A DNA stretch of 64,000 nucleotides, taken from the NCBI GenBank assembly GCA_000998805.1, contig LCFC01000004.1, forward strand, positions 2,446 through 66,445, given 5' to 3'. The notes beneath the pieces were generated by a model, which saw only the letters and a program-made list of their open reading frames with translations, was not told where the DNA came from and did not search any database. Each line of letters begins with the position of its first letter. The stretch's first letter is position 1. Below are positions 6,328 to 64,000 of this stretch, one piece after another. This DNA is from Parcubacteria group bacterium GW2011_GWA2_43_11 (lineage in GTDB: Bacteria > Patescibacteriota > Minisyncoccia > Phycocordibacterales > UBA12088). The position numbers and the translations under genes are program-made.

Positions 6328-6783
6328 GTACTATGTATTGTATCAGGACTACGTGCATTAGGTGCATATGTTTTCAACAAGTGACGAGTAAAATAAGTTT
6401 CTAGTTCACAGTTCCTAGTTCTCCCCGCCACGGCGGGGTGAAGAAAGAAAGACGAAAAGAAACATGGATTGATTTCCTCCTTCGATTCCTACACCGGAGC
6501 TTCCTCCTTCGCTCCTTCCTAAGCTGAAGCTACGAAGGACAAGAAAGCTTCGGCGGGACGAGACGGCAGGGCGAGGCGCAATGATGCGTATTTTAAAGGT
6601 TTTTAAGAATATTGGTGGTCGTTTGTTCAGTACCAACTATGTCGGACCTAACGACTTCTGGCGCAGTCGCGGTGGTTTCGCGTTCGTCGTTCCGCAAGTT
6701 GGTCTTAAGATTTAAGACTCCTTGGCACGATTCGTTAAGGACTTCGGTTCTTTGCAAATTTCAGTCCTTTTTGACCATTGTGT

Positions 6784-7044: not shown

Positions 7045-7078
7045 AGTAGGACGTACACAAAAGGATGCAGTTCTAGAT
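7045..7078. repeat. Truncated MITE-family remnant (left end only) fused to the 5' end of nusA
   Basis: TAGGACgTACaCAAAaGGATGCAGTTCtAG matches the left end of the copies at 18362 and 21964 (…CAAACGGATGCAGTTC…). Confidence 0.5.
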
Positions 7079-33601: not shown

Positions 33602-35107
33602 ATGCACATGATAAACATAGAGCTGGAACACATCACTAAGATAGAAGGTGACGCGTCTATCAGTATCACTGTCGAAGATGGGAAGGCGACCAAGGTCCAC
33701 TTCATAACTGAAGAATACAAACGTTTCTTTACGGAAGCTCTGAAAGGTAAAAGTATTCTAGCGGTACCATCACACCTCTCACGCATCTGCGGTACGTGTT
33801 CAAACGCGCATGTGCTCGCTGCTATTGAAGCATGCGAGATGGCACTTGATATACAGCCTACCAAGCAAACAATGATGCTTCGCGCTCTTACCCTGCATGG
33901 ACTCACAATTCGCGACCATGCACTCCACCTCTACCTGTTCTGTATGCCGGACATCTATGGGAAGGATGCGTTTCTCGACTTTGATGAAAACGACCCCCAT
34001 GAGAACCAATTGCTACATGATGCGTTTGCGATAAAGAGCGCGGGGAACTTCCTCGCTACTATCATTGCAGGGAGGTCAATTCACGCGATGTTTCCGGCTA
34101 TTGGAGGCTTTATTAAGTATCCGGATGCCGAACAGGTCGCGCAAGCAATAGAAAAACTTGAAAGTGTACGCGAGGCTACGGTACGACTTGTCGCGGAGTT
34201 TGAGAAATGCACGTTTGCCTTTGACCGACATACCGACTACATGGCACTTTTGCCTGACGAAGGGTATGGATATATTAATGGCAGAATACGTACGAGTAAG
34301 GGTGAGGTGTATGACGAGAAGCTCTACCGTGAGCTTGTCGAGCACGTGGTATTGCCATACTCGCAAGCGAGCGCGTATCAGTACAAAGGAGACTCCTATA
34401 TGGTGGGTGCACTTGCTCGTATGAACATAGCTCGGGATAAGCTACATCCAAAGACGAAAGAATCGTGTCAATCCGCACTTGCACTGTTTCCCTCAACAAA
34501 CATTTTTCACAACAACTTGGCTCAGGCAATAGAAATTATGCATTCGGTTGATGAGAGTATCGACCTTCTTAAAAACAACCCTATAGTACAAGAAGATTTG
34601 GTTAAGATGCCATATCGAGAAGCCACAGGTATTGGGGTTATTGAGGCTCCTCGTGGAGCGCTCTACCATAAGATTCATGTAGGGGCGGACGGCAAGATAA
34701 TGGATGGAGAAGTCATCGTACCTACAGGGCAAAACCAGATAAATATTGAAGAGGACTGCGGACGACTCGTCGAAGATCTCGTGGCAAAAGGGGTGACTGA
34801 CGTGGAGGCGATAACTTTCGAGCTCGAAAAGCTCATCCGTGCCTATGACCCCTGTATGTCCTGCGCCGCAGCGCCAAATCGTGAAGAGCGAAACGAATTC
34901 TCAGAAGAACAACAAGAGATTATTGAAATGTATCAACAAGAGTTGCGAGACCTTGAAACGTGGAGAAATGAGCTTCTTCAGAAATGTGAAGCAAACGAGC
35001 GTGATGGAAAAGATTGTAATGCGCTACGGCAAGTAATAGAAGATGAGTATTTTGAAAAAGAATTGGAATTACGTCAAAGAGCCCACTATGCGGAGCACTC
35101 CGTATAG
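33602..35107 (+). CDS. [NiFe]-hydrogenase large-subunit-like protein with an unusual approximately 80-aa charged C-terminal extension
   Basis: N-terminal L1 motif RICGTCSNAH; C-terminal DPCMSCAAA (the L2 motif lacks the usual His/Arg), then APNREERNEF…HYAEHSV. Confidence 0.8.
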   Translation: MHMINIELEHITKIEGDASISITVEDGKATKVHFITEEYKRFFTEALKGKSILAVPSHLSRICGTCSNAHVLAAIEACEMALDIQPTKQTMMLRALTLHGLTIRDHALHLYLFCMPDIYGKDAFLDFDENDPHENQLLHDAFAIKSAGNFLATIIAGRSIHAMFPAIGGFIKYPDAEQVAQAIEKLESVREATVRLVAEFEKCTFAFDRHTDYMALLPDEGYGYINGRIRTSKGEVYDEKLYRELVEHVVLPYSQASAYQYKGDSYMVGALARMNIARDKLHPKTKESCQSALALFPSTNIFHNNLAQAIEIMHSVDESIDLLKNNPIVQEDLVKMPYREATGIGVIEAPRGALYHKIHVGADGKIMDGEVIVPTGQNQINIEEDCGRLVEDLVAKGVTDVEAITFELEKLIRAYDPCMSCAAAPNREERNEFSEEQQEIIEMYQQELRDLETWRNELLQKCEANERDGKDCNALRQVIEDEYFEKELELRQRAHYAEHSV

Positions 35108-35836: not shown

Positions 35837-36253
35837 TTAGATATTCGATTTCCAATAACCACTCTCGTCTAACGCTTCCATGTACTCAGGGAAATCTATT
35901 GCAAATTTTTTATCTATTCTTGTTAAAGCAACGCATTGCCATGCAACACCTAAGAAACAGCAACTAATTGGAACAGTGAGCAGGAAAGATATACTTTCAA
36001 ATCTGAGTAGAAAGTAAGCGCCTACTAGGAGTGACAGAAGAGCTAAAACAAAACCCGTTCCCACTCTTAGGTCGCCAATGCTATCCCTGTATTCTTGATG
36101 GCACTTTTCTGCTGCCCTAACTTCTACGTCGCAAAATTTTCGCCCTATGAGCTCCATTGCTCCACATTCAGGACATTTTTTACGAACTGCTTCACCGCAT
36201 TCACTGCAGAAATTTCCAAGTTGTCCTTTGTGTTTACATGTATCAGTATTCAT
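35837..36253 (-). CDS. Zinc-ribbon membrane protein (N-terminal CxxC…CxxC, two TM helices)
   Basis: CKHKGQLGNFCSECGEAVRKKCPECG followed by hydrophobic segments. Confidence 0.55.
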   Translation of the reverse strand: MNTDTCKHKGQLGNFCSECGEAVRKKCPECGAMELIGRKFCDVEVRAAEKCHQEYRDSIGDLRVGTGFVLALLSLLVGAYFLLRFESISFLLTVPISCCFLGVAWQCVALTRIDKKFAIDFPEYMEALDESGYWKSNI

Positions 36254-41063: not shown

Positions 41064-41104
41064 GGCCCAAACGCATAGCGACTACAACGAAGTATTCCGT
41101 CCAT
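41064..41104. repeat. 41-bp direct repeat, copy 2, located 3 nt downstream of the transporter stop. It starts a 41-codon remnant ORF (MDGILRCSRYAFGPTSYKYPLL…).
   Basis: One mismatch relative to 39650–39690. Confidence 0.85.
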
Positions 41105-46905: not shown

Positions 46906-47247
46906 CGGTGTGACTTGCGGTAGTATTCCTTTACCGCATCTGCGCGTATTTTTTTCTGTGATATGCGGAGGCTCTTTGTATGTCTCCAATGCCTGAGAAA
47001 GGTATACGTAATGAGGTTTTATTAAATGTTGTTAGAGCTGGCATAAATTCGTTTCTGGGTTTGTAAAAACGAAAATAAGAAAATTTGGAGCATACCGTAG
47101 TTTTGTTTTCAAAAATTTATTTTCCTCTTGCTTTCACAGTAACGTTCGTGTCTGACTTATAACAATTCAGAGCACCCTTTCGAAGTTGAGGCCAAGTTCT
47201 CGCGCCTTCACCTTCGCAAGGAAGCTCAACACTTAACATTAAGTATT

Positions 47248-48486: not shown

Positions 48487-48852
48487 ATGGCAACTAAAAC
48501 CACAAAGAAGGTTTCGAAAAGCTCAAAGATTGCACCGGTGGGTGAGGGTAGTAAACTACGTATCCGCATTCGTGCCTACGAACATAAGATTCTTGATGCA
48601 AGCATTAAGCAGATTATGGACACAGCGCTTCGATACGAAGCAAAAGTGGTTGGTCCTGTACCATTGCCAACGGAAATCAAGAAATACACGGTCAACCGCG
48701 CCACATTCGTTCACAAAGATGCGCGAGAACAATTTGAGATGCGAGTTCATAAGCGTATGATTGACATCTTGAATCCCGATCCGAAAGTAGTTGAAGCTCT
48801 AACAAACCTCTCTCTACCATCTGGCGTCAATATTGATGTCAAGATGAGTTAG
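48487..48852 (+). CDS. rpsJ: 30S ribosomal protein S10
   Basis: …KLRIRIRAYEHKILDASIKQIMDTA… The ORF is open from a TTG at 48466. Confidence 0.9.
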   Translation: MATKTTKKVSKSSKIAPVGEGSKLRIRIRAYEHKILDASIKQIMDTALRYEAKVVGPVPLPTEIKKYTVNRATFVHKDAREQFEMRVHKRMIDILNPDPKVVEALTNLSLPSGVNIDVKMS

Positions 48853-48863
48853 AAAACGTTAAG

Positions 48864-48897
48864 AAAAAACCGCTCTGAAGAGAGCGGTTTTTTCTTT
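48864..48897 (+). terminator. Rho-independent terminator directly after rpsJ (AAAAAACCGCTCTGAAGAGAGCGGTTTTTTC)
   Basis: Perfect stem plus a T-run, an unusual position inside the S10 operon. Confidence 0.65.
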
Positions 48898-49263
48898 TAG
48901 GTTTTGTTACATGCCGGGAGCAAGGCGGACGGCGCTTAGATAATGTTACTAAAATACCATCATGCTGATGGTATTTTAGTCTACTCTTTCTCGGATACCT
49001 TCGTGAAAGTTAGACCTTGCTCTGTAGTGATACATGTACTAAAAAAACCGCCCAACAGGGCTATTTTTTGTTTATGTAAGTATTACAACTAACGAACGTC
49101 AAAGGGAAAAGAGACTGTTGTTTAAAGAGACTATACAGCCAATTCAACACAATGTTGAATTTGGTGTTGCTCAGTCGTGGATTACCTGCCTGCGTAGACA
49201 GGAATTGCGTTCTTAATGACGCCGACTGAGTTAAAAGTTGTATAAAAATGGTACGGAGGTTTT

Positions 49264-49464
49264 ATGAAAAGAAAAGTGAAGCATATAATACCGTTCGATG
49301 ATGACCTGGTGGAGACAATTCCCGAAGGTCTGGAGTGGGAGATTGTCGGAAACGAGCTTGTAATCAAAGTGCCAAAATACCCTGCTGACGGTGCGTTCGT
49401 ATTCATTGAATGGTGCGCAGAGAAAGGGATTGAACATAAATGGCAAGATGGAAGAAATCTGTAA
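49264..49464 (+). CDS. Small protein, paralog family member A (66 aa); GGAGG Shine-Dalgarno
   Basis: MKRKVKHIIPFDDDLVETIPEGLEWEIVGNELVIKVPKYPADGAFVFIEWCAEKGIE…. Confidence 0.55.
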   Translation: MKRKVKHIIPFDDDLVETIPEGLEWEIVGNELVIKVPKYPADGAFVFIEWCAEKGIEHKWQDGRNL

Positions 49465-49474
49465 TCCCCAGTAG

Positions 49475-49707
49475 CGTAGTTGAGGTGGTGAAATACCAAG
49501 GGATGAATATGTCATTCGTACAAGGGGTGCAAGACGTTTAATAAAAACCCTCCCAAAGGGTTTAAATGGACGGGTTGAGAAAAGACAAATTCTGGAACAA
49601 TTTGTTTTACTTGTGCAAGTTCCAGCAAGTCCCCATGTTCTTTTTACAAAGTTCACAGAATGGTGCAGGAGAAATGATATAAATATGGAACAGTTGGTTG
49701 TTCAGTA
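49475..49707 (+). pseudogene. Degenerate paralog B of the same small-protein family with no canonical start codon
   Basis: In-frame translation …TLPKGLNGRVEKRQILEQFVLLVQVPASPHVLFTKFTEWCRRNDINMEQ aligns with A and C. Confidence 0.35.
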
Positions 49708-49755
49708 ACCTTGAGCCAATAATGTGGCACTAAACTCTTTCAAAGGAATAAAAAT

Positions 49756-49785
49756 AAGGCCAGAGACAAGCATTGTCCTGGCCTT
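49756..49785 (+). terminator. Conserved hairpin AAGGCCAGAGACAAGCATTGTCCTGGCCTT (family shared with 50268)
   Basis: Same stem sequence as the hairpin at 50268–50299. Confidence 0.5.
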
Positions 49786-49895
49786 CTGAGTAGTCCACCA
49801 ACGTGAACAGATTACCATTTGACTCTCTCTACATTCGGAGTACCATGAAAATTAGAGGAAATTAAGATGAAAATTCACCAAATAAGGAGAAAGTT

Positions 49896-50180
49896 ATGTG
49901 TGGAAAATGCGAAAATTGTGGCTATATTCCCTCAAAAAAAGAAGAATGGAATGAATTCAGAATCATAAGTGACGACCCTACCATTTTGGCAGGGACCCTC
50001 CCTCCGTATAATCCAGTAAGGTTGACTCTGAGAGGTGTTGTTAAGAACGGAGTGTTGGTGATTCGAGTCCCACCCAATGCTGAGCGGCCCGAGTATGATG
50101 CTTTCATGACTTGGTGTAAACAACAGAACATTGTCTTGTCAGGCTTTACTGGGGTAGTTCGCGAAACTCAAGCTGCGTAA
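49896..50180 (+). CDS. Small protein, paralog family member C (94 aa, Cys-rich N-terminus CGKCENCGY); AAGGAG Shine-Dalgarno
   Basis: …TLPPYNPVRLTLRGVVKNGVLVIRVPPNAERPEYDAFMTWCKQQNIV…. Confidence 0.55.
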   Translation: MCGKCENCGYIPSKKEEWNEFRIISDDPTILAGTLPPYNPVRLTLRGVVKNGVLVIRVPPNAERPEYDAFMTWCKQQNIVLSGFTGVVRETQAA

Positions 50181-50267
50181 TAGGCTGCGAATACGTATGA
50201 ACGACGAAAAGAAATAGGCCGGTAGATACAATCTATCGGCCTTGAAATGTGCTTGCGTAAAAAAGTG

Positions 50268-50299
50268 AAGGCCAGGGACAAAATAACGTCCCTGGCCTT
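50268..50299 (+). terminator. Conserved hairpin GAAGGCCAGGGACAAAATAACGTCCCTGGCCTT
   Basis: An 11-bp stem, paralogous to the hairpin at 49756. Confidence 0.5.
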
Positions 50300-50559
50300 T
50301 AACGAATTGCTGAAGTGAAGTGCGTCAGATTATCTTCTATCCACCTAACACAGTTTTTCCCTAAGGTGATAGGGTGGTCTGGCATACTCAGACGTTCAGT
50401 GTTTGATAAAAAATCGAGGCCAACAACCTTCGCTTTCGCTACTAGCAGCCTCCTTCTCTGATTCGCGGGCACCCACTTCAGCAATATGAAGTACATGTTT
50501 GTTACTAAACCTAGAGTATCAGAACATTTTTGTAAGTCAATTTATTGGTGTGTCATACC

Positions 50560-50628
50560 CAGTAGTGAAAATTGACGAAGCTCGACCTGTGGTCGAGCGC
50601 ACAAAGTGCATCGTCAATTTCTACTACG
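50560..50628. repeat. Third copy of the approximately 70-nt hairpin repeat (AGTAGTGAAAATTGACGA…TCGTCAATTTCTACTAC) with a different internal loop
   Basis: Arms identical to the units at 46747 and 46826; the loop has its own sub-hairpin CTCGACCTGTGGTCGAG. Confidence 0.7.
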
Positions 50629-50879
50629 GGGTTGCATTTTTTAACCCATTCCTGTATAGTACCGAGGCTAATAGAAGTATCGTAAGGTACTAGCCATGTT
50701 CCACCGACAGCAATGATAGGGAACCTCTGGACCGTAAGCCTCACTGGCTAGTGGTTCAGTGTAGGCCTTTTTTGTTAGCAAGGTCTTTAAAAACAGCGCA
50801 CTTCATCGTTGTGCTGCACAAAATACTTCTCATCGTATAATTTAATACGACTCGCAGTATTTTGTTTGCACGCCTCGAA

Positions 50880-50907
50880 TTGCATCTGTTTTTATACGCC
50901 CTACAGT
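50880..50907 (+). promoter_or_regulatory. Candidate sigma70-type promoter for rplC (TTGCAT-16-TACAGT)
   Basis: Hexamers visible directly. Confidence 0.35.
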
Positions 50908-50921
50908 TTTTGGTTTCAAAA

Positions 50922-51543: not shown

Positions 51544-52227
51544 ATGGACGCAAAGATATACAACATGAGTGGTAAAGAAACTGGAACAGTAGCACTTCCT
51601 GAGACTGTTTTTGGTGCAGCGTGGAATGGAGATCTTGTACACCAAGTAGTCACCGCCATGCTTGCAAATGCTCGAACACCTATAGCGCACGCGAAAGATC
51701 GCTCAGAAGTATCTGGAACTGGAAAAAAACCTTGGAAACAAAAGGGTACGGGAAGCGCACGACACGGATCACGACGTTCACCTATCTGGCGCAAGGGAGG
51801 TGTCGCACACGGACCACGAAACGAGCGAACCTTTAAGCAGAAAATAAACAAGAAGATGCGTGTGAAGGCACTCTATGCAGTACTTACCAAGAAATTCCAA
51901 GATGGAGAAGTACTTTTCCTTGATGCGATGACTTTTGAAGCACCAAAGACAAAAGAAGCAAAAAACACGATTGCAGCACTCGCAAAGATACAAGGATTCG
52001 AGTCGCTCGCAACCAAGCGCGCAAATACTGCTCTTATTGCGAGCATCACCACAGATGACAATACCGTTAAAAGCTTGCGAAACTTCAACAATATGATGCT
52101 TGAGCACGTCCGAAGTCTAAGTCCCGTTGATGTTCTTAAATACAAGTACCTCGTGCTAGTAGGAGCAGAGGATGCGGTGAAGGAGATAGAAAGTCGTGGC
52201 GCACAGACACCTGCTGTAAATAAATAA
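51544..52227 (+). CDS. rplD: 50S ribosomal protein L4
   Basis: …VHQVVTAMLANARTPIAHAKDRSEVSGTGKKPWKQKGTGSAR…. Confidence 0.9.
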   Translation: MDAKIYNMSGKETGTVALPETVFGAAWNGDLVHQVVTAMLANARTPIAHAKDRSEVSGTGKKPWKQKGTGSARHGSRRSPIWRKGGVAHGPRNERTFKQKINKKMRVKALYAVLTKKFQDGEVLFLDAMTFEAPKTKEAKNTIAALAKIQGFESLATKRANTALIASITTDDNTVKSLRNFNNMMLEHVRSLSPVDVLKYKYLVLVGAEDAVKEIESRGAQTPAVNK

Positions 52228-52234
52228 AAGGCAT

Positions 52235-52654
52235 ATGGCAATTTTTAACAAAAAAACTTCAGAAGGCGAGGTAGAAAACAAGAAAGCATCAGAAGCTAAG
52301 AAGGATGTCGCTGTGGTAAAAAACAAGAAAGCGGTCAAGCCTAAGGGTGATACTGCTGGCTACAATCTTACCAAAGAACCGGGACGTATCATCAAAACAC
52401 CTCGAATCACTGAAAAGGCTTTGCAAATGACCACAAGTGGCACGTACGTATTTGAAGTAGCTATGGATGCAACAAAGCGAGACATTGTGACCGCAGTGCA
52501 GGCGCTCTACAAGATAACACCACGTAAGATAAATATTGTTCGCCGAGGTCCTCGCCCATACGTAGCACGTTTCAGAAATCGACGTGGAACAAAAGTGGGA
52601 GTAAAAAAAGCATACGTTTTTCTTAAAAAAGGAGACAAAATTGACTTAGCATAA
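52235..52654 (+). CDS. rplW: 50S ribosomal protein L23 (Lys-rich N-terminal extension)
   Basis: Conserved L23 core. Confidence 0.9.
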   Translation: MAIFNKKTSEGEVENKKASEAKKDVAVVKNKKAVKPKGDTAGYNLTKEPGRIIKTPRITEKALQMTTSGTYVFEVAMDATKRDIVTAVQALYKITPRKINIVRRGPRPYVARFRNRRGTKVGVKKAYVFLKKGDKIDLA

Positions 52655-52658
52655 GCAT

Positions 52659-53504
52659 ATGAAGAACTACCGACCAACAACAGCATCACGACGGCACATG
52701 ACCACACGTTCCTACAAGAAGGTAGTGACAGTGTCTACGCCACACAAAACCCTCACCAAGGGAGGTAAGCGTGCTGTGGGACGTAACAGTCAGGGTAGGA
52801 TTACTTCACGACACATGGGAGGTGGTCACAAGCGAAAGTTCCGTGAGATTGACTTCACCTACAACAAACACGACATTCCTGCGAAGGTAGAAACGATTGA
52901 GTACGACCCAAACCGAAGTTCATACATCGCACTTCTTTGCTATGCTGATGGTGAACGTCGCTATACGACCGCTCACAGAGACATGAAGGTTGGAGATACG
53001 TTTATAGTTTCTGAAACAGCAAAGCCTGTGGCAGGGGTACGTATGCCACTTCGAAACATTCCTATAGGACTTGCGATTCACAATATTGAAACCAAGCCGG
53101 GAGCTGGAGCACGACTCATACGATCAGCAGGTACTTCAGCTACGATTCTTGCGCAGGATGGTACCCACACACACCTTAAAATGCCTTCATCTGAAATTCG
53201 AAAACTCAATAGCGCTGTCTGGGCTACTATCGGTGTTGTTTCAAACGAGGAGCATCAGTTGCTCACGATTGGAAAAGCGGGACGTAGTCGATGGCTTGGT
53301 ATACGACCTACGGTACGTGGTACAGCGATGAACCCTGTTGATCATCCAAATGGAGGAGGAGAAGGACGACAAGGTCGTGGACACCGCCGAGCACGAAGTA
53401 TCTTTGGAAAACCTACTGGCAAGGGTCACAAGACTCGACGACCAAAGAAATACAGCGATTCACTTATAGTGTCACGCCGTAAGGTAGGTAAGAGACGAAA
53501 ATAG
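52659..53504 (+). CDS. rplB: 50S ribosomal protein L2
   Basis: …GGGHKRKFREIDF… 281 aa. Confidence 0.95.
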   Translation: MKNYRPTTASRRHMTTRSYKKVVTVSTPHKTLTKGGKRAVGRNSQGRITSRHMGGGHKRKFREIDFTYNKHDIPAKVETIEYDPNRSSYIALLCYADGERRYTTAHRDMKVGDTFIVSETAKPVAGVRMPLRNIPIGLAIHNIETKPGAGARLIRSAGTSATILAQDGTHTHLKMPSSEIRKLNSAVWATIGVVSNEEHQLLTIGKAGRSRWLGIRPTVRGTAMNPVDHPNGGGEGRQGRGHRRARSIFGKPTGKGHKTRRPKKYSDSLIVSRRKVGKRRK

Positions 53505-53510
53505 AGTTAA

Positions 53511-53539
53511 TTGACAATAGGTCTAGCGTTGCGTAGTAT
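53511..53539 (+). promoter_or_regulatory. Near-consensus promoter TTGACA-17-TAGTAT between rplB and rpsS
   Basis: Hexamers and 17-nt spacing visible directly. Confidence 0.45.
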
Positions 53540-53575
53540 GAGCGCACGCTCGCCCACGAGCATTTTTATTACAAT

Positions 53576-53811
53576 ATGACACGATCACTTAAAAAAGGAC
53601 CATACGTAGACCCTCGAGTCTTATGGCAAAAACCACATTGAAGTACTCTGTACAGAAGACATGGTTGGACACAAACTTGGGGAATTTTCACCATCTACCA
53701 AATTCATGCGACATGGAGGAAAAATCCAGAAGGAGCTTGAACAAGCTCGAAAGGATTCTGAAATTCAGGCAGCAAAGGCGGCAAAAGCAGCTGCATCATC
53801 AAAAAAATAAC
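53576..53811 (+). pseudogene. rpsS: rpsS (30S protein S19) disrupted. Codons 1–21 are in one frame ([16 protein letters not shown] then TGA at 53639). The C-terminal half (…[29 protein letters not shown]…) is in another frame. About 34 central codons are absent.
   Basis: Manual translation; alignment to B. subtilis and E. coli S19 residues 1–16 and 48–92. Confidence 0.6.
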
Positions 53812-53819
53812 ATACCATC

Positions 53820-54299
53820 ATGCAAGCTTTTCTTAAAAACAATCGTCAGGCTCCACGCAAAGTGCGCTTAATTGCACGTGCTGTTGTCGGGAAGACTGTA
53901 GCGGTTGCCCTTTCTGAGCTTACCTACATGCCCCACAAAGGAGCAAAAACACTCAGTAAGCTTATCGTAAATGCAGTTGCAAATGCGAAGCAAGCAGATA
54001 GTAGTCTCAACGAAAATACCCTTATGGTGAAGAATATAATGGTTGATAAGGGTGTAACACTTATGCGATTCATGCCTCGAGCTTTTGGACGAGCATCACC
54101 AATACACAAAGAGTCTTCGCATATTCGTATACTTCTAGCAGAGATACCTACCACCAAGAAAGTTGCAAAGACGTCGATGAAAGAAGATGTGAAGAAAGAA
54201 ACCAAAGAAGTAAAGCCTGAAAAAGCAGTTACTGTAGAAAAAACCCACACCTCCACTAAAGTTACGGCGGACAAGGAAGTAGAAATAGTTGCTAAATAA
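53820..54299 (+). CDS. rplV: 50S ribosomal protein L22 (C-terminal extension)
   Basis: Conserved L22 core. Confidence 0.9.
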   Translation: MQAFLKNNRQAPRKVRLIARAVVGKTVAVALSELTYMPHKGAKTLSKLIVNAVANAKQADSSLNENTLMVKNIMVDKGVTLMRFMPRAFGRASPIHKESSHIRILLAEIPTTKKVAKTSMKEDVKKETKEVKPEKAVTVEKTHTSTKVTADKEVEIVAK

Positions 54300-54333
54300 T
54301 CACGAAAACTAATTTTAATTACAAAAACTTATT

Positions 54334-54938
54334 ATGACGCACGTAGTACATCCATACGCACATCGACTGGGAATCATCCGAGACTGGAAGTCACGTTGGT
54401 TTGTCCGTGATCGTAAGCAATTGCAGGTACGCTTCGCATTATTGTGAAGACCGCCCGTCCTGGTATGCTTATCGGCCGAAGCGGTGAAGGTGTTCAAAAG
54501 CTTCATAAGGAGATTGCAAAACAAATGCGTGCTCTAAAACTGTCCGAAACACCTGAGGTAAAGCTTGATATTGAAGAGATACGAAATCCAGAAGCAAATG
54601 CGCAAATTGTTGCTGAAATGGTTGCAGAAAGTCTTGAGAAGCGTATGCCTTTCCGTCGTGTTTTGAAACAAACGATTGAGAAGGTGATAGCAAACAGAGA
54701 CGTAAAGGGTGTACGTATTGCACTCGCTGGACGTATTGGTGGAGCGGAGATGAGTCGAAATGAGCAGATAAAGCGAGGACGAGTTCCTCTTCAGACACTT
54801 CGAGCGGATATCGAATTTGCTCGAACGGAAGCTTACCTTGCGTACACCGGTCTTGTAGGTATCAAAGTTTGGATTTACAAAGGAGATATTTTTGATACTG
54901 ACGAGCAGAATCAGACACAAACTCAAAACGCAAGATAA
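54334..54938 (+). pseudogene. rpsC: rpsC (30S protein S3) disrupted. N-terminal 37 codons (MTHVVHPYAHRLGIIRDWKSRWFVRDRKQ… then TGA at 54445). The KH/C-terminal part is in a different frame from 54429 (LRIIVKTARPGMLIGRSGEG…). About 34 codons are missing.
   Basis: Alignment to T. thermophilus S3 residues 1–28 and 63–207. Confidence 0.6.
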
Positions 54939-54956
54939 AAGATTTAATTACCTACC

Positions 54957-55379
54957 ATGTTACTACCAAAGAAAGTTAAATATCGAAAACTACAGCGAGG
55001 TCGCGATGCGATTCAGTATCGTCACCCTGCACAACGTGGGATCACGATTGCGTTTGGTTCCTTTGGTCTGAAATCTATAGAACAGGGACGTATTCGAAGC
55101 AACCAAATAGAGGCGGCTCGACGTACCATAAACCGCGCTATGGGTAAGACTGGGCGTATCTGGATTCGTATATTCCCTGATAGGCCATACACACAGAAAG
55201 CTGCAGAGGTAGGTATGGGTAAGGGAAAAGGAGATGTGCAGGCATATGAAGCCCCAGTGCTTCGAGGTAGCGTACTTTTTGAGGTAGATGGTATTGATGA
55301 GACCACTGCACGCGAAGCACTACGTAAGGCAAGTGCAAAACTTCCAGTTAAGACACGTTTTGTTGTTCGTAATGGGTAA
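54957..55379 (+). CDS. rplP: 50S ribosomal protein L16
   Basis: MLLPKKVKYRKLQRG…. Confidence 0.95.
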   Translation: MLLPKKVKYRKLQRGRDAIQYRHPAQRGITIAFGSFGLKSIEQGRIRSNQIEAARRTINRAMGKTGRIWIRIFPDRPYTQKAAEVGMGKGKGDVQAYEAPVLRGSVLFEVDGIDETTAREALRKASAKLPVKTRFVVRNG

Positions 55380-55444
55380 GTAGTTGCAAAAGATAAGAAA
55401 AGATATAGGATAACAAACATTTCAGGTGGGTAAGAATTTCTAAC

Positions 55445-55657
55445 ATGACTAAGAAAAAAGACACATTTCAAGACAAAGACGAGAAGGAGCTCAAGAAGCT
55501 TTTGGGTGAAAAGCGCGAAGCACTACGAGATTTTCGTTTTAGTATGAAGGGTAGCCGTGTGAGAAACACCAAAGAGGGTTCGTTGTTCCGCAAAGATATA
55601 GCTCGCATACTTATGGTACTTGGAAACAACAAGAAGCACGCTACTATCACTGAATAA
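55445..55657 (+). CDS. rpmC: 50S ribosomal protein L29
   Basis: 70-aa helical protein at the conserved position. Confidence 0.85.
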   Translation: MTKKKDTFQDKDEKELKKLLGEKREALRDFRFSMKGSRVRNTKEGSLFRKDIARILMVLGNNKKHATITE

Positions 55658-55664
55658 TTTTATT

Positions 55665-55958
55665 ATGACTACAACAACAAAAAACGATATGACTGCCACA
55701 GAGAAATCTGCAAAAGCTACGACTGAAAAAAAAGGCGGAAAGATACTTCGTGGCACCGTGGTCTCTGACAAAATGAAGGAAACAGTTGTTGTTTCAGTAA
55801 CCCGTTTTGTAAAGCACCCAAAGTATCGAAAATTTATCAAACGAGTGAAGAAGTTCCACGCACACAATCCCGGTGACGTTAAGAAAGAGGGAGATAAGGT
55901 ATCTATTCAAGAGTGCAGACCGATGAGCAAGACTAAGAATTTTATCGTCATAGCATAG
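55665..55958 (+). CDS. rpsQ: 30S ribosomal protein S17
   Basis: …[34 protein letters not shown]…. Confidence 0.9.
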
Positions 55959-55989
55959 TACAGAGATATCTAATCACTTATACACCAAC

Positions 55990-56361
55990 ATGATACAGAC
56001 ACAATCCATCGTAAAAATTGCAGACAACTCAGGCGCCAAAATCGGACGTGTCTTTAAGGTGCTTGGTGGTTCCAAAAGACGGTATGCCCGCATAGGTGAT
56101 ATGGTAGTAATATCTGTGCAGGTTGCAGAGCCACGAAAGATGGTCAAGAAGAAGGAGGTACTCTATGCAGTAGTTGTTCGTTCACGACAGGCTACACGTC
56201 GAGCAGACGGATCGTACATACGTTTTGATGAAAACGCAGTAGTGATTATTGATAAGGACAAGAAAGAGCCAAAGGCAAACCGTGTGTTTGGTCCTATTCC
56301 CCGGGAAATTTCAGAAGCTGGCTATCAGCGCATAGCGTCACTTGCACCAGAGGTACTCTAA
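55990..56361 (+). CDS. rplN: 50S ribosomal protein L14
   Basis: [17 protein letters not shown]…. Confidence 0.95.
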
Positions 56362-56368
56362 AACTATC

Positions 56369-56686
56369 ATGAAAATCCACAAAAACGACAACGTTATAAT
56401 TATTGCAGGTAAGGACAAGGGGAAGACCGGGAAAGTCCTTCGAGCACTTCCAAGCGTTGAGAAGGTAATAGTTCAAGGAGTTAATATCCAGAAGCACCAC
56501 AAGAAAACCAAGAAAGACACCAAGCAAGGAGGTGGTATCGTCGAGGTGTCTGCTCCCATCCACGTTTCAAATGTACAGTTGGTAGATCCTAAGACAGGCA
56601 AAAAGACTCGTATCGGGGTGACCAAGGATGATGCAGGCAAGAAGAACGTACGCGTTACCAAAAAAAGTAGTACTAAGCTTAAGTAA
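56369..56686 (+). CDS. rplX: 50S ribosomal protein L24
   Basis: MKIHKNDNVIIIAGKDKGKTGKV… (KOW motif). Confidence 0.9.
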   Translation: MKIHKNDNVIIIAGKDKGKTGKVLRALPSVEKVIVQGVNIQKHHKKTKKDTKQGGGIVEVSAPIHVSNVQLVDPKTGKKTRIGVTKDDAGKKNVRVTKKSSTKLK

Positions 56687-56691
56687 ATACC

Positions 56692-57255
56692 ATGCTGACT
56701 TTCAGAGAAAAAATAAATACCGTATTTAACGTCATGAGCGAGGAGTTTGGGTACACCAACAAAATGGAGGCACCAAAGATTGAGAAGATTGTTATCTCTA
56801 CCGGTATCGGTAAAATTTCCGATGCAAAGAAAGTTGAACTCATTCAAGAACGACTTGCTCGTATTACGGGACAGAAAGCAGCGCCACGAGGAGCGAAGAA
56901 GAGTATTGCAGCGTTTAAGGTGCGAGAAGGTGATGTTGTGGGGTACCAGACAACACTACGTGGTGAGCGTATGCGTGACTTTTTCGATAAACTCATACAT
57001 GTAGCACTTCCACGAATGCGTGATTTCCGCGGTATCAAGCCCTCTGCTATTGATGAGCTTGGAAATATTACGATTGGTATTACCGAGCACACTATATTCC
57101 CCGAGACGTCAGACGAGGACCAGCGCGATGTGTTTGGACTTGCGGTAACTATCGTGACCACATCGAAGTCAAAGAAGGAAGCAGAAACGTTCCTTCGTCT
57201 TATGGGAGTACCACTCAAGAAAGCAGAGGAAAAGAAGAAGAAAAAGAGCAGATAA
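56692..57255 (+). CDS. rplE: 50S ribosomal protein L5
   Basis: Conserved L5 core. Confidence 0.95.
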   Translation: MLTFREKINTVFNVMSEEFGYTNKMEAPKIEKIVISTGIGKISDAKKVELIQERLARITGQKAAPRGAKKSIAAFKVREGDVVGYQTTLRGERMRDFFDKLIHVALPRMRDFRGIKPSAIDELGNITIGITEHTIFPETSDEDQRDVFGLAVTIVTTSKSKKEAETFLRLMGVPLKKAEEKKKKKSR

Positions 57256-57274
57256 TTTTCACTATATACAACAA

Positions 57275-57344
57275 CAAAAGCGCCGAACGGCGCTTTTGTG
57301 TTTTGTATAAATAGTCAACACCCAGCATTTCTGCTGGGTGTTTT
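57275..57344 (+). terminator. Two tandem terminator hairpins after rplE (AAAAGCGCCGAACGGCGCTTTT; ACACCCAGCATTTCTGCTGGGTGTTTT)
   Basis: Both are followed by T-runs. Confidence 0.6.
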
Positions 57345-57362
57345 GGGATGGAATTTTTGATG

Positions 57363-58211
57363 TTACTTTTCACCGACGTGGCAGAGATAGTTATTTCGAC
57401 TGTGGGCATGACGATAATGCTCTTTAAGACCAAAACGTATATAGAACTCTATACGTTCTTCAAGTTCTGGAATGTACGTACAGAGTTTATCGAGTTCAAA
57501 CATGCGCTTTTCAATCTGTTTTTCCACCTCTGATTCTAAACAGTGTTCCCAGCGTTTTTTAAGTTCCGTAAAGTCAAAAATACCACTGAGTTGTTGAGTG
57601 TTCAGAACGTACATTTGGTCTTGGTAGAGTTTCAAGCGAGGTTCAGTAGCAGATACTGCGCGGAGATATTGAAACCTATCTATAAGCTCATTGTAGTTCG
57701 TAATCTGCGGGACTTCCTTGTCGTCGAGTTCCAGCAAGCGTTTTTTAAGATGTTCATGGATTCGTTCACATTCTTTCCCATAGCGCCGATAGAATTCTTC
57801 AATATTCCGCAGCTTCGGATAATAGTTACATGAGTCAATACATGACCCAATGTAGCGAAACAATTGCACTCTAAGTGCAGAGTTGCTTCTGCTGTGCTTA
57901 TATCGTTCTGCAAGTGCTAGGTGATCCAGGTGATTAGTCATGTTTGGTAGGTCAGTTTTGTTCACCTCAACCATAAGCTCTTCCATCCTGTACCAAAGGA
58001 GTGGCAACTCAGCCTGACGTGCTTTTTCCCAGATATACATGAGTTCAGGATAGTACGGCTGGTTTTCAGCAAGAGTGCACAGGTCCCTTGTGTGTCTCTC
58101 TACCATAATTCTGGTATACGATTTTTGTCTGAACCACTCGATAAGACTAAAGTAATGATCAATATCATTACGTTGTATGAGTCTGTCCTCTGAAATATTC
58201 GCACTTGTCAT
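57363..58211 (-). CDS. Hypothetical predicted alpha-helical protein (282 aa) on the opposite strand inside the spc operon; AGGAGG Shine-Dalgarno
   Basis: No recognised family. Confidence 0.55.
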   Translation of the reverse strand: MTSANISEDRLIQRNDIDHYFSLIEWFRQKSYTRIMVERHTRDLCTLAENQPYYPELMYIWEKARQAELPLLWYRMEELMVEVNKTDLPNMTNHLDHLALAERYKHSRSNSALRVQLFRYIGSCIDSCNYYPKLRNIEEFYRRYGKECERIHEHLKKRLLELDDKEVPQITNYNELIDRFQYLRAVSATEPRLKLYQDQMYVLNTQQLSGIFDFTELKKRWEHCLESEVEKQIEKRMFELDKLCTYIPELEERIEFYIRFGLKEHYRHAHSRNNYLCHVGEK

Positions 58212-58640
58212 TATAGGTACCTCCTGAAAGTTTGATATTCTGAAAAGTTCCTGCTATTTCCTACCAGCACCATATATCAAAGGTGTAAATAGTCAACGCC
58301 CAACAGTTTAGTCAAAGGTTGTTTGAGAGGAAAACATATAGAACGCTATCTGATAGCGTTCTTCTAGTACGGGGCGAAGGTGGGAGCCTTGGAGGGTGTC
58401 ATTGTGAACCCGCAGGCGCGACAATCCACGTTTTTCATCCCATTAAAGACAGGTCATCACAGAGTGACCGTAGTTTATATGATTAATTGCCAGTGGTTAT
58501 ATCACATCTCATATCTTTAACTATTTTTGGAAACATCACTGGTTTGGTCTCTAACGGGATTCATTTAAAATTGAATCATTTTGTCATTCAATAAAAATTA
58601 AAAATTACTCATCCTTTCAACTTTATAACTTTATGAACTT

Positions 58641-59690
58641 TTAACTTACTTGTTTCTTCGTAGGGGTCGTGCGCAAGTGCGTGATTGATACCACAGTACC
58701 ACGTGCTGTACTCACTCGGCTTATCTCCGCATGTAATTGTTGTGCAAGTGATTCAATGATATTTGTACCTAGACCTTCTTTATTTGATGCAGTCGCTTCA
58801 AGTCCAACACCATCATCCCCAATACTGAGCACCCATTTTTTTGCATTTGATGTAAAGGTAACAGTTACTTGACCCTCACCTTTAGGAAAGGCGTGTTTTA
58901 AGGAGTTGATTACTAGCTCAGTTGTGATGAGTCCTATGCCAATAGCCTCATCGGGCGTGACAGAGCCAGCCCCGCCCACAACTTTAAGGGTAATAGGTTT
59001 ACGTCCTCCTATCATCGATTTTGTGAGACTCTTGCAGAGTACACGTAAGTAGTTCAATACAGGCACCATAGAGCCCTCACTTACAGGGTCGAGGTTACGT
59101 TGGACAGTCGCAATAGAGATAATTCGATCATGTGCATCTTCGAGGTGTGCCTTACTCTCCTTTGAGGTCACGCTATCGGACTTGAGAAGGATGATACTTG
59201 CGATAAGTTGCAGACTGTTTGCAATGCGATGACGCATCTCTTTGAGAAGCGTATCCTTTTGCAACATCAAGTTTTCTTTATCTCGCTGTACCTTACGCTC
59301 TTCGGTTATGTCGGTTATGGAAATAAATATATCTTCGTGCTTGTCAGCACCTGTTTGTATTGTATGTGCGTCCATAAGCATCACCCGCAAGCCAAGATTT
59401 TCGAATGTATGTACGACTTCGTATCCCTCAACTTTTGTTTTGTCTGGGATGACTTGCTCAAGAAGTGATGTGAGGGCGGGGACATTCCATTCACCTGTGC
59501 CTAATGCATCAAATCTTTTTCCGTTAATTTTTTTTGAATCAACGTTAAACCTGTCATAAAAAGCATGATTAGCAGCTACAACTTGTAATTTACTATTGAG
59601 TACTACTATTGGTTCAGACAATGTCTCCACAATTGCATTAGACAATTCAAAGTTCAGGCCCTCTATAGGTTTTATAGGCTTTTTATTCAT
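58641..59690 (-). CDS. Cytoplasmic sensor histidine kinase (PAS domain + HisKA_2/HWE-type H-box + HATPase_c)
   Basis: H-box EMRHRIANSLQLIASIIL; ATP-binding G-boxes DDGVGL, GLGTNI; no TM segment. Confidence 0.7.
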   Translation of the reverse strand: MNKKPIKPIEGLNFELSNAIVETLSEPIVVLNSKLQVVAANHAFYDRFNVDSKKINGKRFDALGTGEWNVPALTSLLEQVIPDKTKVEGYEVVHTFENLGLRVMLMDAHTIQTGADKHEDIFISITDITEERKVQRDKENLMLQKDTLLKEMRHRIANSLQLIASIILLKSDSVTSKESKAHLEDAHDRIISIATVQRNLDPVSEGSMVPVLNYLRVLCKSLTKSMIGGRKPITLKVVGGAGSVTPDEAIGIGLITTELVINSLKHAFPKGEGQVTVTFTSNAKKWVLSIGDDGVGLEATASNKEGLGTNIIESLAQQLHAEISRVSTARGTVVSITHLRTTPTKKQVS

Positions 59691-59785
59691 AACTATATCT
59701 ATATTATATAGTATACGCTATATTTCGGTATTATACTAATTCGTTATGAATTCTACATGGAGATGAATGCTTTGGTTTCAATTTG

Positions 59786-59814
59786 TTGACTTACTCTACG
59801 CAACCTGCTAGTAT
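59786..59814 (+). promoter_or_regulatory. Near-consensus promoter TTGACT-17-TAGTAT upstream of rpsN
   Basis: Hexamers visible directly. Confidence 0.5.
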
Positions 59815-60001
59815 GTTCCAACGCTAGAGAAAACAACACTGTTTCTACTCTTTTGGGAAAAAAGCCCAGCGTACACGATAGAAGTAAGTCGGGAGAGCGT
59901 GTAATTGACACCTCAAAGCGATACTGCTACTATGCGCCAAGCTCTTCGGAGCGTTTTATAGTAATACAGTACCAAAACCACGCAATTCAAAAACATTAGG
60001 T

Positions 60002-60187
60002 ATGGCAAAGAAATCTGTAATAGCACGATCAAAGAAGACGCCGAAATTCAGTACACGAGGTGTAAATCGTTGTTTTCGCTGTGGACGTGGACGAGGATTT
60101 ATGAGAGATTTTGACCTGTGTCGTATTTGTTTTAGAGAATTGGCAAACGAGGGACAGATTCCAGGTATTAAAAAGAGCTCTTGGTAG
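60002..60187 (+). CDS. rpsN: 30S ribosomal protein S14 type Z (zinc-binding)
   Basis: [23 protein letters not shown]. Confidence 0.9.
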
Positions 60188-60191
60188 ACAT

Positions 60192-60587
60192 ATGATGACA
60201 GACCCTATTTCAGACATGATAATTCGCATCAAGAATGCCGCTATGGCAGGTAATGATGTGGTATCCATGCCTCAATCAAAAATTAAAGTTGCTATTGCAG
60301 ACAAGCTTAAACAGCGAGGTGTTGTGAGTGATATCGCATCACGCGGAAAGAACGTAGGAAAGACGTTAGAATTGACACTTGCGCGTGACGAGAAGGGTAC
60401 GTACAAGTTTATTGATGTACGTCGTGTTTCTAAGCCTGGATGCCGTGTATATTTCAGTGCGCATGACATACGCCCTATCATGGGTGGCACAGGAACACTG
60501 CTTATCTCAACACCAAAGGGAATTCTTTTTGGTCACGAGGCACGTCAAGAAGGTGTAGGAGGAGAACCATTGTTTGAAATTTGGTAG
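60192..60587 (+). CDS. rpsH: 30S ribosomal protein S8
   Basis: MMTDPISDMIIRIKNA…. Confidence 0.95.
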   Translation: MMTDPISDMIIRIKNAAMAGNDVVSMPQSKIKVAIADKLKQRGVVSDIASRGKNVGKTLELTLARDEKGTYKFIDVRRVSKPGCRVYFSAHDIRPIMGGTGTLLISTPKGILFGHEARQEGVGGEPLFEIW

Positions 60588-60687
60588 CACAGGGTTCTTG
60601 CTGCATGCTTGGTCTCTTGTACGGGAGAGCAGGCATGCGGTAAGAAAAAACCGTAGCTTCATGCAAACATCATCAACAAAAATTACC

Positions 60688-61221
60688 ATGAGTCGAATAG
60701 GAAAAAAACCAGTAGTAGTGCCAGAAAAAACCGATGTTACTATCGTGGATGGTGTGCTTACGGTGCAAGGACCTCTTGGTGTTTTGACAAAAGAAGTGCA
60801 TCCCTACGTTGGAGTGGCTATTGAAGGAAAAGAGGTACAAGTTTCACCTAAAAATGAAACACGCTTAGCAAAGGCACTTTGGGGAACATTTGCATCACAT
60901 TTACAAAATATGATTAAAGGCGTGAATGAGCGGTACACAAAAAAGCTTGTACTTGATGGTATTGGATACAAAATGGCCTCATCGGACAAAGAGCTTACCT
61001 TAAGCCTAGGCTTTTCACATAAAGTTATTATGTCTATTCCTGAAGGCGTCACTGTAACAGTCGAGAAAAACATTCTTACAATTTCAGGAATTGACAAAGA
61101 TGTCGTAGGGCAGTTTTCAGCAAACGTACGAGCAAAAAAGAAGCCGGAGCCTTACAAAGGTAAAGGGTTCCATTATGATGATGAAGTTATCTTGCGTAAA
61201 CAAGGTAAGAAAGCCGCATAA
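60688..61221 (+). CDS. rplF: 50S ribosomal protein L6
   Basis: MSRIGKKPVVVPEKTDVTI…. Confidence 0.9.
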   Translation: MSRIGKKPVVVPEKTDVTIVDGVLTVQGPLGVLTKEVHPYVGVAIEGKEVQVSPKNETRLAKALWGTFASHLQNMIKGVNERYTKKLVLDGIGYKMASSDKELTLSLGFSHKVIMSIPEGVTVTVEKNILTISGIDKDVVGQFSANVRAKKKPEPYKGKGFHYDDEVILRKQGKKAA

Positions 61222-61229
61222 CACTAACT

Positions 61230-61580
61230 ATGAGTACTACAGTTTCAAAACAAGAAAAGAGAACACGACGACATGGACGAGTGCGTTCAAAGATTTCTGG
61301 TACCGGTACATGCCCACGTCTTGCAGTATTTCGTTCAAACCGATTTATGTATGCACAGCTTATTGATGATGAGAAGGCTGTTACACTTGTTGCTCTAGAC
61401 TCAAAGAAGATGGAAGGTGCTAACGCACGAGAACGAGCAATAGCACTAGGGAAGGCACTAGCTACACAAGCAGTCAAGCTTGGTATTGGAAAAGTGGTGT
61501 TTGATCGAGGAGGTTTTCTATATGCAGGGTCTATCAAATCATTCGCTGACAGTGCACGAGAAGGTGGACTCAAATTTTAA
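61230..61580 (+). CDS. rplR: 50S ribosomal protein L18
   Basis: Conserved L18 core. Confidence 0.9.
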   Translation: MSTTVSKQEKRTRRHGRVRSKISGTGTCPRLAVFRSNRFMYAQLIDDEKAVTLVALDSKKMEGANARERAIALGKALATQAVKLGIGKVVFDRGGFLYAGSIKSFADSAREGGLKF

Positions 61581-61590
61581 TACGTAACGT

Positions 61591-62226
61591 ATGAACGAAC
61601 ACACAACAAAAAACACAGGTGAGAATAAAGGTACTGATACTCCAAATACTTCAGCGCCTCAAGGTGCAGGTGCACCACATACTCGTGGAAGCGGTGACCG
61701 ACGTGCACGACGTGTTCGCCGACCTCGAGTTCGAAGTGAGTTTGATAACAAGATTTTAGGCATACGTCGTGTGACGCGTGTTGTTGCCGGAGGACGTCGT
61801 TTCTCGTTTAGTGTAACGATGGTTATTGGAAACGGTGCTGGACAAGTAGGTGTTGGTATCGGCAAAGCGTCGGATACTGCACTAGCTATTGAAAAAGCTA
61901 CTCGTGATGCAAAGAAGCATTTGATTACTGTTCCTCTTACAGATGATCTTTCGATACCTCATGAGGTACGAGCGAAGTATGATGCGGCACAAGTACTTCT
62001 TATACCTACCCCTGGAAAAGGTTTTAAGGCAGGTAGTGCTGTACGTACCGTACTTGAGCTTGCCGGTGTAAAGCATGTGACTGCTAAGATACTTTCTCGA
62101 AGCAAGAATCACTTGAACAATGCCAGAGCTACTGTAGTTGCATTAAAGAAACTCAAGCCCGCTCTGAAGCGAACTACTGACGATAGTACTAAAAAGAAAC
62201 CTGGAACTAAGAATGTAAGCAAATAA
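61591..62226 (+). CDS. rpsE: 30S ribosomal protein S5 (N-terminal extension)
   Basis: …ILGIRRVTRVVAGGRRFSFSV…. Confidence 0.9.
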   Translation: MNEHTTKNTGENKGTDTPNTSAPQGAGAPHTRGSGDRRARRVRRPRVRSEFDNKILGIRRVTRVVAGGRRFSFSVTMVIGNGAGQVGVGIGKASDTALAIEKATRDAKKHLITVPLTDDLSIPHEVRAKYDAAQVLLIPTPGKGFKAGSAVRTVLELAGVKHVTAKILSRSKNHLNNARATVVALKKLKPALKRTTDDSTKKKPGTKNVSK

Positions 62227-62236
62227 TATTTCGACT

Positions 62237-62686
62237 ATGCAGCTCCACAATATCAAAAAAAGCTCAGGAATAACGACAGCGCGACGCATTGGTCGTGGTG
62301 GTAAACGTGGCAAGACGAGTGGTAAGGGACACAAAGGTCAGAAGTCACGAGCTGGGCACAAGATACGCCCTGCAGAACGAGACATGATCAAGCGACTCCC
62401 AAAGCTTCGCGGTCACGGTAAAAACCGCTCACGCACCGTAAATCCAGACAAGGTTGCTCCTTCAGTTGTGAATCTTTCCGTACTCGAAGTACATTTTGCA
62501 GATGGTGACCGAGTATCACCTAAAGCGCTTGTGGTTAAGAAGTTGGTCAACACGCTCTCAGGTCGTGTTCCAAAAATGAAGATACTAGGATTTGGTACAC
62601 TGACAAAGAAACTAACAATAGCAGAATGTGAGGTTTCTAAGAGTGCGAAGGAAGCAATAGAAAAAGTTGGAGGAAAGGTGTTGTAA
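62237..62686 (+). CDS. rplO: 50S ribosomal protein L15. There is no rpmD (L30) between rpsE and rplO.
   Basis: …RRIGRGGKRGKTSGKGHKGQ…. Confidence 0.9.
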   Translation: MQLHNIKKSSGITTARRIGRGGKRGKTSGKGHKGQKSRAGHKIRPAERDMIKRLPKLRGHGKNRSRTVNPDKVAPSVVNLSVLEVHFADGDRVSPKALVVKKLVNTLSGRVPKMKILGFGTLTKKLTIAECEVSKSAKEAIEKVGGKVL

Positions 62687-62733
62687 GCTAGCACAGCATT
62701 TCAGAGAGTGCTACCCACCGTATTGACGTAAAC

Positions 62734-64000
62734 ATGATAGGAGCATTTATACAAAAACTTAAACTCATTTTCGCAGACGGGAATCTTCGCAAGCGCATCT
62801 TTTTTGTACTTGGAGCATTAGCAGTTTTTCGTATTCTTGCTTCCATTCCTATTCCAAGTGTCGACAAACTACAACTCGCTTCATTTCTCGAAAGTCACCA
62901 GTACCTAGGGCTCATGAACATGTTCTCTGGAGGTGGTCTCTCTAATCTTTCTATAGTGATGCTTGGTGTCAGTCCATACATTACTGCTTCTATTATCATG
63001 CAACTCATGAGTATTATGTCGCCAACTATTAAGGCACTACATACAGAAGAAGGTGAAATAGGACGACAAAAGTTTACGCAGTATTCACGAATGCTCACGA
63101 TTCCGCTTGCGTTTGTACAGGCATTTGGTTTCCTTATGCTTTTGTCTCGTCAAGGTATCGTAGGCGACCTTACCATGTTTAGCTTTATTGTGAATGTCAT
63201 GGTTGTTGCTGCCGGCTCTATCCTCCTCATGTGGGTTGGTGAGCTCATTTCCGAGTTTGGTATCGGTAACGGTGTGTCGCTGATTATCTTTGCTGGTATC
63301 GTGGCATCACTCCCTACCACCATTGGGCAAGTACTCTTTAATTTTGACATGGCACAGATACCTACCTACATCGCGTTTATCATTGTGGCGGTGCTCGTGA
63401 CTGCGGTGGTGGTCATTATTACTGAAGCAGAACGGCCTGTCCCTGTCTCGTATGCTAAGCAGGTGCGAGGAGGCAAGAGCTACGGAGGTGTTTCTACCTA
63501 CCTACCGCTCCGAGTGAATCAGGCGGGAGTAATTCCTATTATTTTTGCACTTTCTATTATTCTGTTCCCTCAAATGATACTGAGCTTTTTCCAAGGGTCA
63601 GAGACAGCGAGTGTTGCTGATATGGCAAGCACTATTCTTACCTACTTCACCAATCCATGGATATATGCAGGTGTGTACTTTGTGCTCGTGTTCTTTTTTA
63701 CGTACTTCTATACCGCAGTGACGTTTGACCCTCAATCTATCTCCACTAACCTTCAGAAATCAGGTGCGTTTATCCCAGGCGTACGACCAGGTGCTGCGAC
63801 TGCAGAATATCTTGGAAACATCATTACGCGCATCACACTCGTCGGAGCACTCTTTCTCGGTCTTATCGCGGTCTTGCCACTAGCGATGCAGGGTATCACC
63901 AATAACGGAGCTTTTGCTATTGGAGGTACGGCACTCCTTATTGCGGTTTCGGTGGTATTAGACATTGTCCGCAAAGTTGATGCCCAAATCTCTATTCGCG
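62734..64000 (+). CDS. secY: Preprotein translocase SecY (3' end outside the window)
   Basis: Manual translation MIGAFIQKLKLIFADGNLRKRIFFVLGALAVFRILASIPIP… with multiple TM helices; no stop before 64000. Confidence 0.9.
   Translation, partial: MIGAFIQKLKLIFADGNLRKRIFFVLGALAVFRILASIPIPSVDKLQLASFLESHQYLGLMNMFSGGGLSNLSIVMLGVSPYITASIIMQLMSIMSPTIKALHTEEGEIGRQKFTQYSRMLTIPLAFVQAFGFLMLLSRQGIVGDLTMFSFIVNVMVVAAGSILLMWVGELISEFGIGNGVSLIIFAGIVASLPTTIGQVLFNFDMAQIPTYIAFIIVAVLVTAVVVIITEAERPVPVSYAKQVRGGKSYGGVSTYLPLRVNQAGVIPIIFALSIILFPQMILSFFQGSETASVADMASTILTYFTNPWIYAGVYFVLVFFFTYFYTAVTFDPQSISTNLQKSGAFIPGVRPGAATAEYLGNIITRITLVGALFLGLIAVLPLAMQGITNNGAFAIGGTALLIAVSVVLDIVRKVDAQISIR

Follow-up and report, generated by a model that had tools for sequence, protein, structure and literature searches.

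Is ribosomal protein uS19 really split in this Parcubacterium, or does the split belong to the genome record? In the window, i.e., the whole 64,000-nucleotide stretch of the 72,805-nt contig UV60_C0004 from the GenBank metagenome-assembled genome (MAG) GW2011_GWA2_43_11 that was analyzed here, rpsS appears as two out-of-frame fragments. They occupy the position expected of rpsS in the S10 operon, between rplB (L2, 52659-53504) and rplV (L22, 53820-54299), within a cluster that reads L3-L4-L23-L2-S19-L22-S3-L16-L29-S17-L14-L24-L5. An earlier note had described this layout, now confirmed by ORF reading and tblastn, and had offered three explanations: an assembly or consensus error, a recent pseudogenization with another copy of the gene at a different place, or some non-standard mode of expression. 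It had suggested a comparison with sister genomes and had named as the deciding result some 100 extra nucleotides that restore a single frame.

The rpsS start codon (ATG) is located at 53576 on the plus strand. Sixteen codons of S19 follow, after which this frame continues with WQKPH into the TGA at 53639-53641 that the earlier note had pointed out. The C-terminal part, ending in SSKK and a stop codon at 53809-53811, is read in the +1 frame with respect to the start codon. When an intact orthologous S19 is aligned to the window by tblastn, residues 1-16 match 53576-53623 (100% identity, E = 4e-6) and residues 53-113 match 53625-53807 (100% identity, E = 4e-37), and the 64-kb window holds no match besides these two fragments. 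The split layout is far beyond chance. As deposited, no single rpsS ORF covers the full uS19 profile: the C-terminal fragment matches only positions 52-81 of the 81 positions of the Pfam family Ribosomal_S19 (PF00203), and the 21-aa N-terminal ORF gives no Pfam hit. In GenBank, the remnant is annotated as a 49-aa ORF alone (53661-53810), named "hypothetical protein UV60_C0004G0057" (KKS85980.1).

The coding sequence absent at the junction amounts to 107 nt or 35 2/3 codons, which corresponds to 36 residues (17-52). Hence, the inference that the missing length is not a multiple of three was right, while the estimate of about 34 codons (residues 17-50) was slightly low. The tyrosine that had been taken to open the C-terminal half turned out to be the junction codon (T|AT); the intact gene reads H N G K N H at this point.

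The intact gene was found in other assemblies. Exact-protein look-ups with the L2 and L22 sequences of the window led to contigs of the same groundwater population, and the comparison set comprised JGI assembly 3300025308, four ENA assemblies (MEGAHIT), ANAN16 scaffolds and two sister GenBank MAGs. In the contigs matched in this way, S19 has 111-113 aa, and S3, the product of the neighboring rpsC, has 232 aa in every complete call except for 182 aa in one sister MAG. A blastn comparison of the JGI contig with the window gives blocks of 100% identity at 52197-53622, 53623-54422 and 54422-64000, the sole differences between them being 107 nt and 94 nt that are extra in the other assemblies. Insertion of the 107 nt at 53622|53623 yields a single uS19 ORF of 113 aa, which is the deciding result that the earlier note had named. 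The restored protein (allele from contig L001) matches PF00203 over its entire length (positions 1-81 of 81, E = 1.9e-31) and aligns over residues 1-84 with uS19 chains of solved structures (PDB), in which residues 17-52 are aligned and largely conserved.

The 107 nt are carried by seven contigs of the same population (JGI, ENA, ANAN16, LCCJ01), by a chimeric LCCS01 contig and by an orthologous contig of 91% identity; sister and independent assemblies alike contain them. In the alignment, they are present in five other sequences, one of which is the 91%-identical orthologue from a different species-level population. An exact-sequence cluster look-up places the intact 113-aa S19 on 12 contigs (NCBI, JGI, ENA). 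Strain-level substitutions aside, the S19 and S3 sequences agree among the JGI, MEGAHIT and ANAN16 assemblies. The lesion is thus absent from independent assemblies that are otherwise identical, with flanks of 100% identity, as would be expected of an artefact. On the evidence of these contigs, the organism carries a normal, single-ORF uS19 of 113 aa. Compared with bacterial uS19 (rpsS, PF00203, S10 operon), the N-terminal 16 and the C-terminal 61 residues in the window are those of uS19, and the restored gene is full-length with a lysine/alanine-rich C-terminal tail, whereas the version in the window lacks residues 17-52, is frameshifted and hence is not an intact member of the family.

The S19 junction is not the only one. 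The whole window was also compared with contigs obtained from six further look-ups, and a total of six omissions of 87-122 nt each was found in the 64 kb (Table 1), each contradicted by two to eight independent contigs. Two are intergenic, two interrupt rpsS and rpsC internally, and two affect gene ends, one taking the nusA start and the other the stop of the hydrogenase gene together with the start of the gene after it; like lesions therefore occur elsewhere in the record regardless of coding context, which again is what an artefact would produce. Two of the six fall inside the S10/spc ribosomal-protein cluster. The consequences for the predicted proteins are considerable. NusA is called with 389 aa (7229-8398, KKS85932.1) instead of the intact 442 aa. 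The large subunit of a Ni-Fe hydrogenase, which has 433 aa elsewhere, is fused in frame to its neighbor in a 501-aa ORF (33602-35107, KKS85956.1). For rpsC, the N-terminal part is left as a 37-aa ORF (54334-54447) that runs out of frame after 54422 and stops at 54445-54447, and GenBank calls a 157-aa ORF (54465-54938, KKS85982.1) in place of the intact protein of 232 aa.

Table 1. Fragments of rpsS and rpsC and the six omissions in the window
Feature	Position	Strand	Basis
Omission of 87 nt, intergenic; 3-nt placement ambiguity	6378..6381	.	contig comparison
Omission of 122 nt including the nusA start codon and upstream region	7072..7073	.	contig comparison
Omission of 105 nt: hydrogenase stop and start of the next gene	34869..34870	.	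contig comparison
Omission of 112 nt: second arm of the rpsJ 3' hairpin and T-run, promoter-like TTGACG..TACTAT	49488..49489	.	contig comparison
rpsS (uS19) codons 1-16	53576..53623	+	ORF reading; tblastn residues 1-16, 100%
S19 omission junction; 107 nt (GAAAAAGGTAGAAGG...GGTGTTCATA, S19 residues 17-52) absent	53622..53623	.	independent assemblies
rpsS residues 53-113 and stop	53625..53811	+	+1 frame relative to start; tblastn; Pfam profile 52-81
rpsC (uS3) N-terminal fragment, residues 1 to ~29	54334..54422	+	ORF and tblastn
Omission of 94 nt of rpsC; 1-nt placement ambiguity	54421..54423	.	contig comparison
rpsC residues 62-232	54423..54938	+	tblastn

The placement of the junctions can be shifted by 3 nt at most at all six omissions. 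Blastn with four of the missing segments (34869, 49488, S19, S3) against the rest of the window returned only chance matches of up to 16 nt, and with intact S19 and S3 as queries, tblastn found no further copy of rpsS or rpsC in the window. The other assemblies are collinear with the window from 12.5 to 34.1 kb. Some further length differences were seen: about 64 nt at 12413-12476 are present in the window and in ENA contig k141_1202534 and absent from JGI Ga0209211_10002543; about 34 nt (36014-36039) and 33 nt (46906-46938) are present in the window and in ENA contigs and absent from GenBank LCCJ01000017.1. At 12437-12446, one of the ANAN16 scaffolds carries about 82 additional nt. All of these are differences between assemblies and not omissions specific to the window.

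Several features of the surroundings deserve mention in their own right. The ribosomal cluster is interrupted between rplE, which ends at 57255, and rpsN (60002-60187), which encodes a zinc-type S14 of 61 aa. The intervening 57363-59690 holds two genes on the opposite strand, one for a 282-aa protein without a Pfam hit and one for a 349-aa PAS/HisKA_2 histidine kinase, and every same-population assembly covering this part shows the same arrangement. Upstream, about 2 kb (48852-50920) separate rpsJ (S10) from rplC (L3); this region contains three short ORFs for which Pfam gave no hit (lengths in other assemblies: 66, 126 and 94 aa), some 660 nt that are poor in ORFs (50200-50860) and no Rfam hit. 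Outside the cluster, a direct repeat of 41 nt (98% identical; 39650-39690 and 41064-41104, 1414 nt apart) flanks a 405-aa ORF on the minus strand (39754-40971) without a Pfam hit. Read on the minus strand, the repeat (ATGGACGG...) equals the 5' end of a DUF6390 gene, and it resembles a gene start that was duplicated when something inserted here.

The split rpsS is very probably a local mis-assembly in the source record UV60_C0004, a reading to which both the other assemblies and the deposited proteins point. At the six points, two assembled pieces would have been joined directly and the 87-122 bases between them lost; at 53622|53623, the omission removes 107 nt of rpsS and shifts the frame. 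We infer that contig ends arise where co-occurring close relatives start or stop sharing sequence, i.e., at branch points of the assembly graph, and that scaffolding or automated error-fixing may then join these ends, so that a gap shorter than one read length is closed to zero.

The behavior of other assemblers at the same places is consistent with this. MEGAHIT contig k141_502468 breaks off 42 nt inside the S19 segment that the window lacks. The S19 junction is preceded, at a distance of 47-135 nt, by the starts of five contigs, four of them at window positions 53524-53575 and the fifth (L009) with 135 nt of intact sequence before the junction; the 34869 junction is preceded by three such starts, 55-250 nt away. 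At 54422, or no more than about 10 nt from it, the identity of contigs L007, L008 and L005 with the window drops from 100% to 99.6, 97.8 and 91%, respectively, and a co-occurring relative of about 91% identity has long identical stretches in the S19/S3 region. Judging from where these contigs begin, end and diverge, the junctions are assembly-fragile points at which other assemblers break.

The sister records deviate as well, each in its own way. In the sister MAG contig LCCJ01000017.1, two segments are absent, one of 44 nt that includes the S19 start and one of 26 nt where L22 borders S3. In LCCS01000043.1, a deletion of 8 nt in rpsC stops 2 nt short of the S3 omission of the window. These deletions lie in the same kilobase as those of the window but differ from them. 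Since the deletions of the sister MAGs at this place are not those of the window, a pipeline artefact is suggested rather than inheritance, and it is the assembly pipeline that is indicated because JGI, MEGAHIT and ANAN16 agree on S19 and S3 while the sister MAGs depart from them differently. [quoted passage not shown] (PMC5220378).

The six junctions do not differ in kind from local mis-assembly or collapsed scaffold gaps in short-read MAGs such as the GW2011 set of Candidate Phyla Radiation (CPR) genomes from Rifle groundwater. They share with these the restriction of the lesion to one assembly, its recurrence at several points with a similar size below read length, the location at sites where assemblers break, the lack of a repeat or mobile-element signature, and analogous but different errors in sister records. 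Candidate steps are IDBA-UD scaffolding or patching by ra2.py.

A separate observation concerns the sister MAG GW2011_GWD2_42_14, which contains two overlapping versions of the S19-L22 region (LCCS01000043.1 and LCCS01000021.1, our L010 and L011), one of them about 91% identical to the window. Positions 1-945 of LCCS01000043.1 are 100% identical to the window, and from the 8-nt rpsC deletion onward the sequence is of the 91% type. The contig probably begins with a chimeric join; that the two populations recently exchanged sequence is less likely.

Could the deletion nevertheless be real? A sub-population might have lost the 107 nt of rpsS recently, with a second copy or an intact majority strain supplying the function. 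The deposited genome record does contain the deletion, and strain heterogeneity is present at the locus. Nevertheless, we regard this as very unlikely, given that six omissions of 87-122 nt would have accumulated within 64 kb while more than 11 kb of JGI-matched flanks stayed free of substitutions. The genes rpsS, rpsC and nusA are normally essential and single-copy, and all three would have been hit. No further rpsS or rpsC was found in the window, nor were the tested missing segments relocated within it. None of the at least nine independent contigs has any of the junctions, the junction 47-mer had no match in the scanned collections of genome and metagenome contigs, and the deletions of the sister MAGs at the same place are different ones. 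A pseudogene should recur in independent samplings next to a functional copy; here, the truncated products are confined to one contig, as opposed to the 12 with an intact S19. The pseudogene proposed in the earlier note is thus not borne out: the lesion is one of six alike in a sequence that is otherwise identical to intact assemblies.

The omissions might also have been introduced when the window was prepared, e.g., by stripping runs of N from a scaffold, in which case the deposited assembly would be free of them. Sizes of 87-122 nt do resemble small scaffold gaps, ra2.py can leave Ns, and the absence of the junction 47-mer from the scanned nucleotide collections would fit. This origin is nonetheless highly improbable in view of the deposited proteins. 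Gene-position look-ups of the 164-aa, 501-aa, 49-aa and 82-aa ORFs had no match. By exact-sequence cluster look-up, the L2 and L22 of the window are KKS85979.1 and KKS85981.1 of GW2011_GWA2_43_11, and the 49-, 157-, 389- and 501-aa products listed above occur on one contig each, namely UV60_C0004. GenBank proteins are exact window ORFs, including the 49-aa S19, the 157-aa S3 and the 501-aa fusion across 34869; had there been a run of N, the proteins would contain X residues or the genes would have been called differently. Because the deposited fusion protein reads across the 34869 junction, the public record itself contains direct joins without Ns.

That all six omissions of about 100 nt are real, either in a recent, multiply deleted variant that would be non-viable or helper-dependent, or through precise excision of segments of this size without sequence signatures, is hardly credible.

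Deliberate non-standard expression, in which a programmed frameshift, a translational bypass or a split gene would produce functional S19 from the two fragments, has a next to negligible probability: the fragments are in order, in different frames, 1 nt apart and in an otherwise well-kept operon, but no part of the window encodes the 36 missing core residues, genomes with identical flanks have S19 as a single ORF, the S19 junction has no repeat or notable inverted repeat, and the same lesion is also seen between genes (6379, 49488), where recoding would make no sense. Frameshifting and bypass can join only what is encoded. The likeness to the +1 frameshift of prfB, the -1 frameshift of dnaX and the bypass of T4 gene 60 is superficial and consists in the distribution of one protein over two frames of the same strand. 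Those systems encode every residue of their product, and relatives share the arrangement; in contrast, rpsS here has neither property.

Three further candidates were tried and rejected. An alternative genetic code with TGA read as glycine (code 25) leads, by readthrough at 53639, into a sequence that is not S19 and leaves the frame problem in place. Deletion between direct repeats or the footprint of a mobile element does not fit, as microhomology was zero at the three junctions tested (49488, S19, S3) and neither repeats nor notable inverted repeats were found at the S19 and S3 junctions. A ribosomal leader, an intron or another known RNA as an explanation of the region was rejected because the whole window, scanned against Rfam with gathering thresholds, gave no hits.

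We thus return to the mis-assembly that the earlier note had listed first among its alternatives. The split rpsS is not a real feature, neither pseudogene nor recoding site nor split gene, and what lies at the locus is a normal bacterial rpsS within an unremarkable S10/spc cluster of a Parcubacterium, a member of the CPR. As such, the split is without biological importance and serves as a caution only. Contig UV60_C0004 of the GenBank MAG GW2011_GWA2_43_11 is affected by at least six silent omissions, each about 100 nt long, that leave rpsS, rpsC, nusA and a hydrogenase gene truncated or fused, and sister GW2011 records have similar small errors. Other records of the GW2011 set probably hold silent omissions of this size too, and these can pass for the loss or truncation of ribosomal proteins. 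Surveys of the presence, absence or length of ribosomal proteins across the CPR could mistake such lesions for lineage-specific gene loss, and the same risk exists where ribosomal markers serve CPR phylogeny or the scoring of genome completeness.
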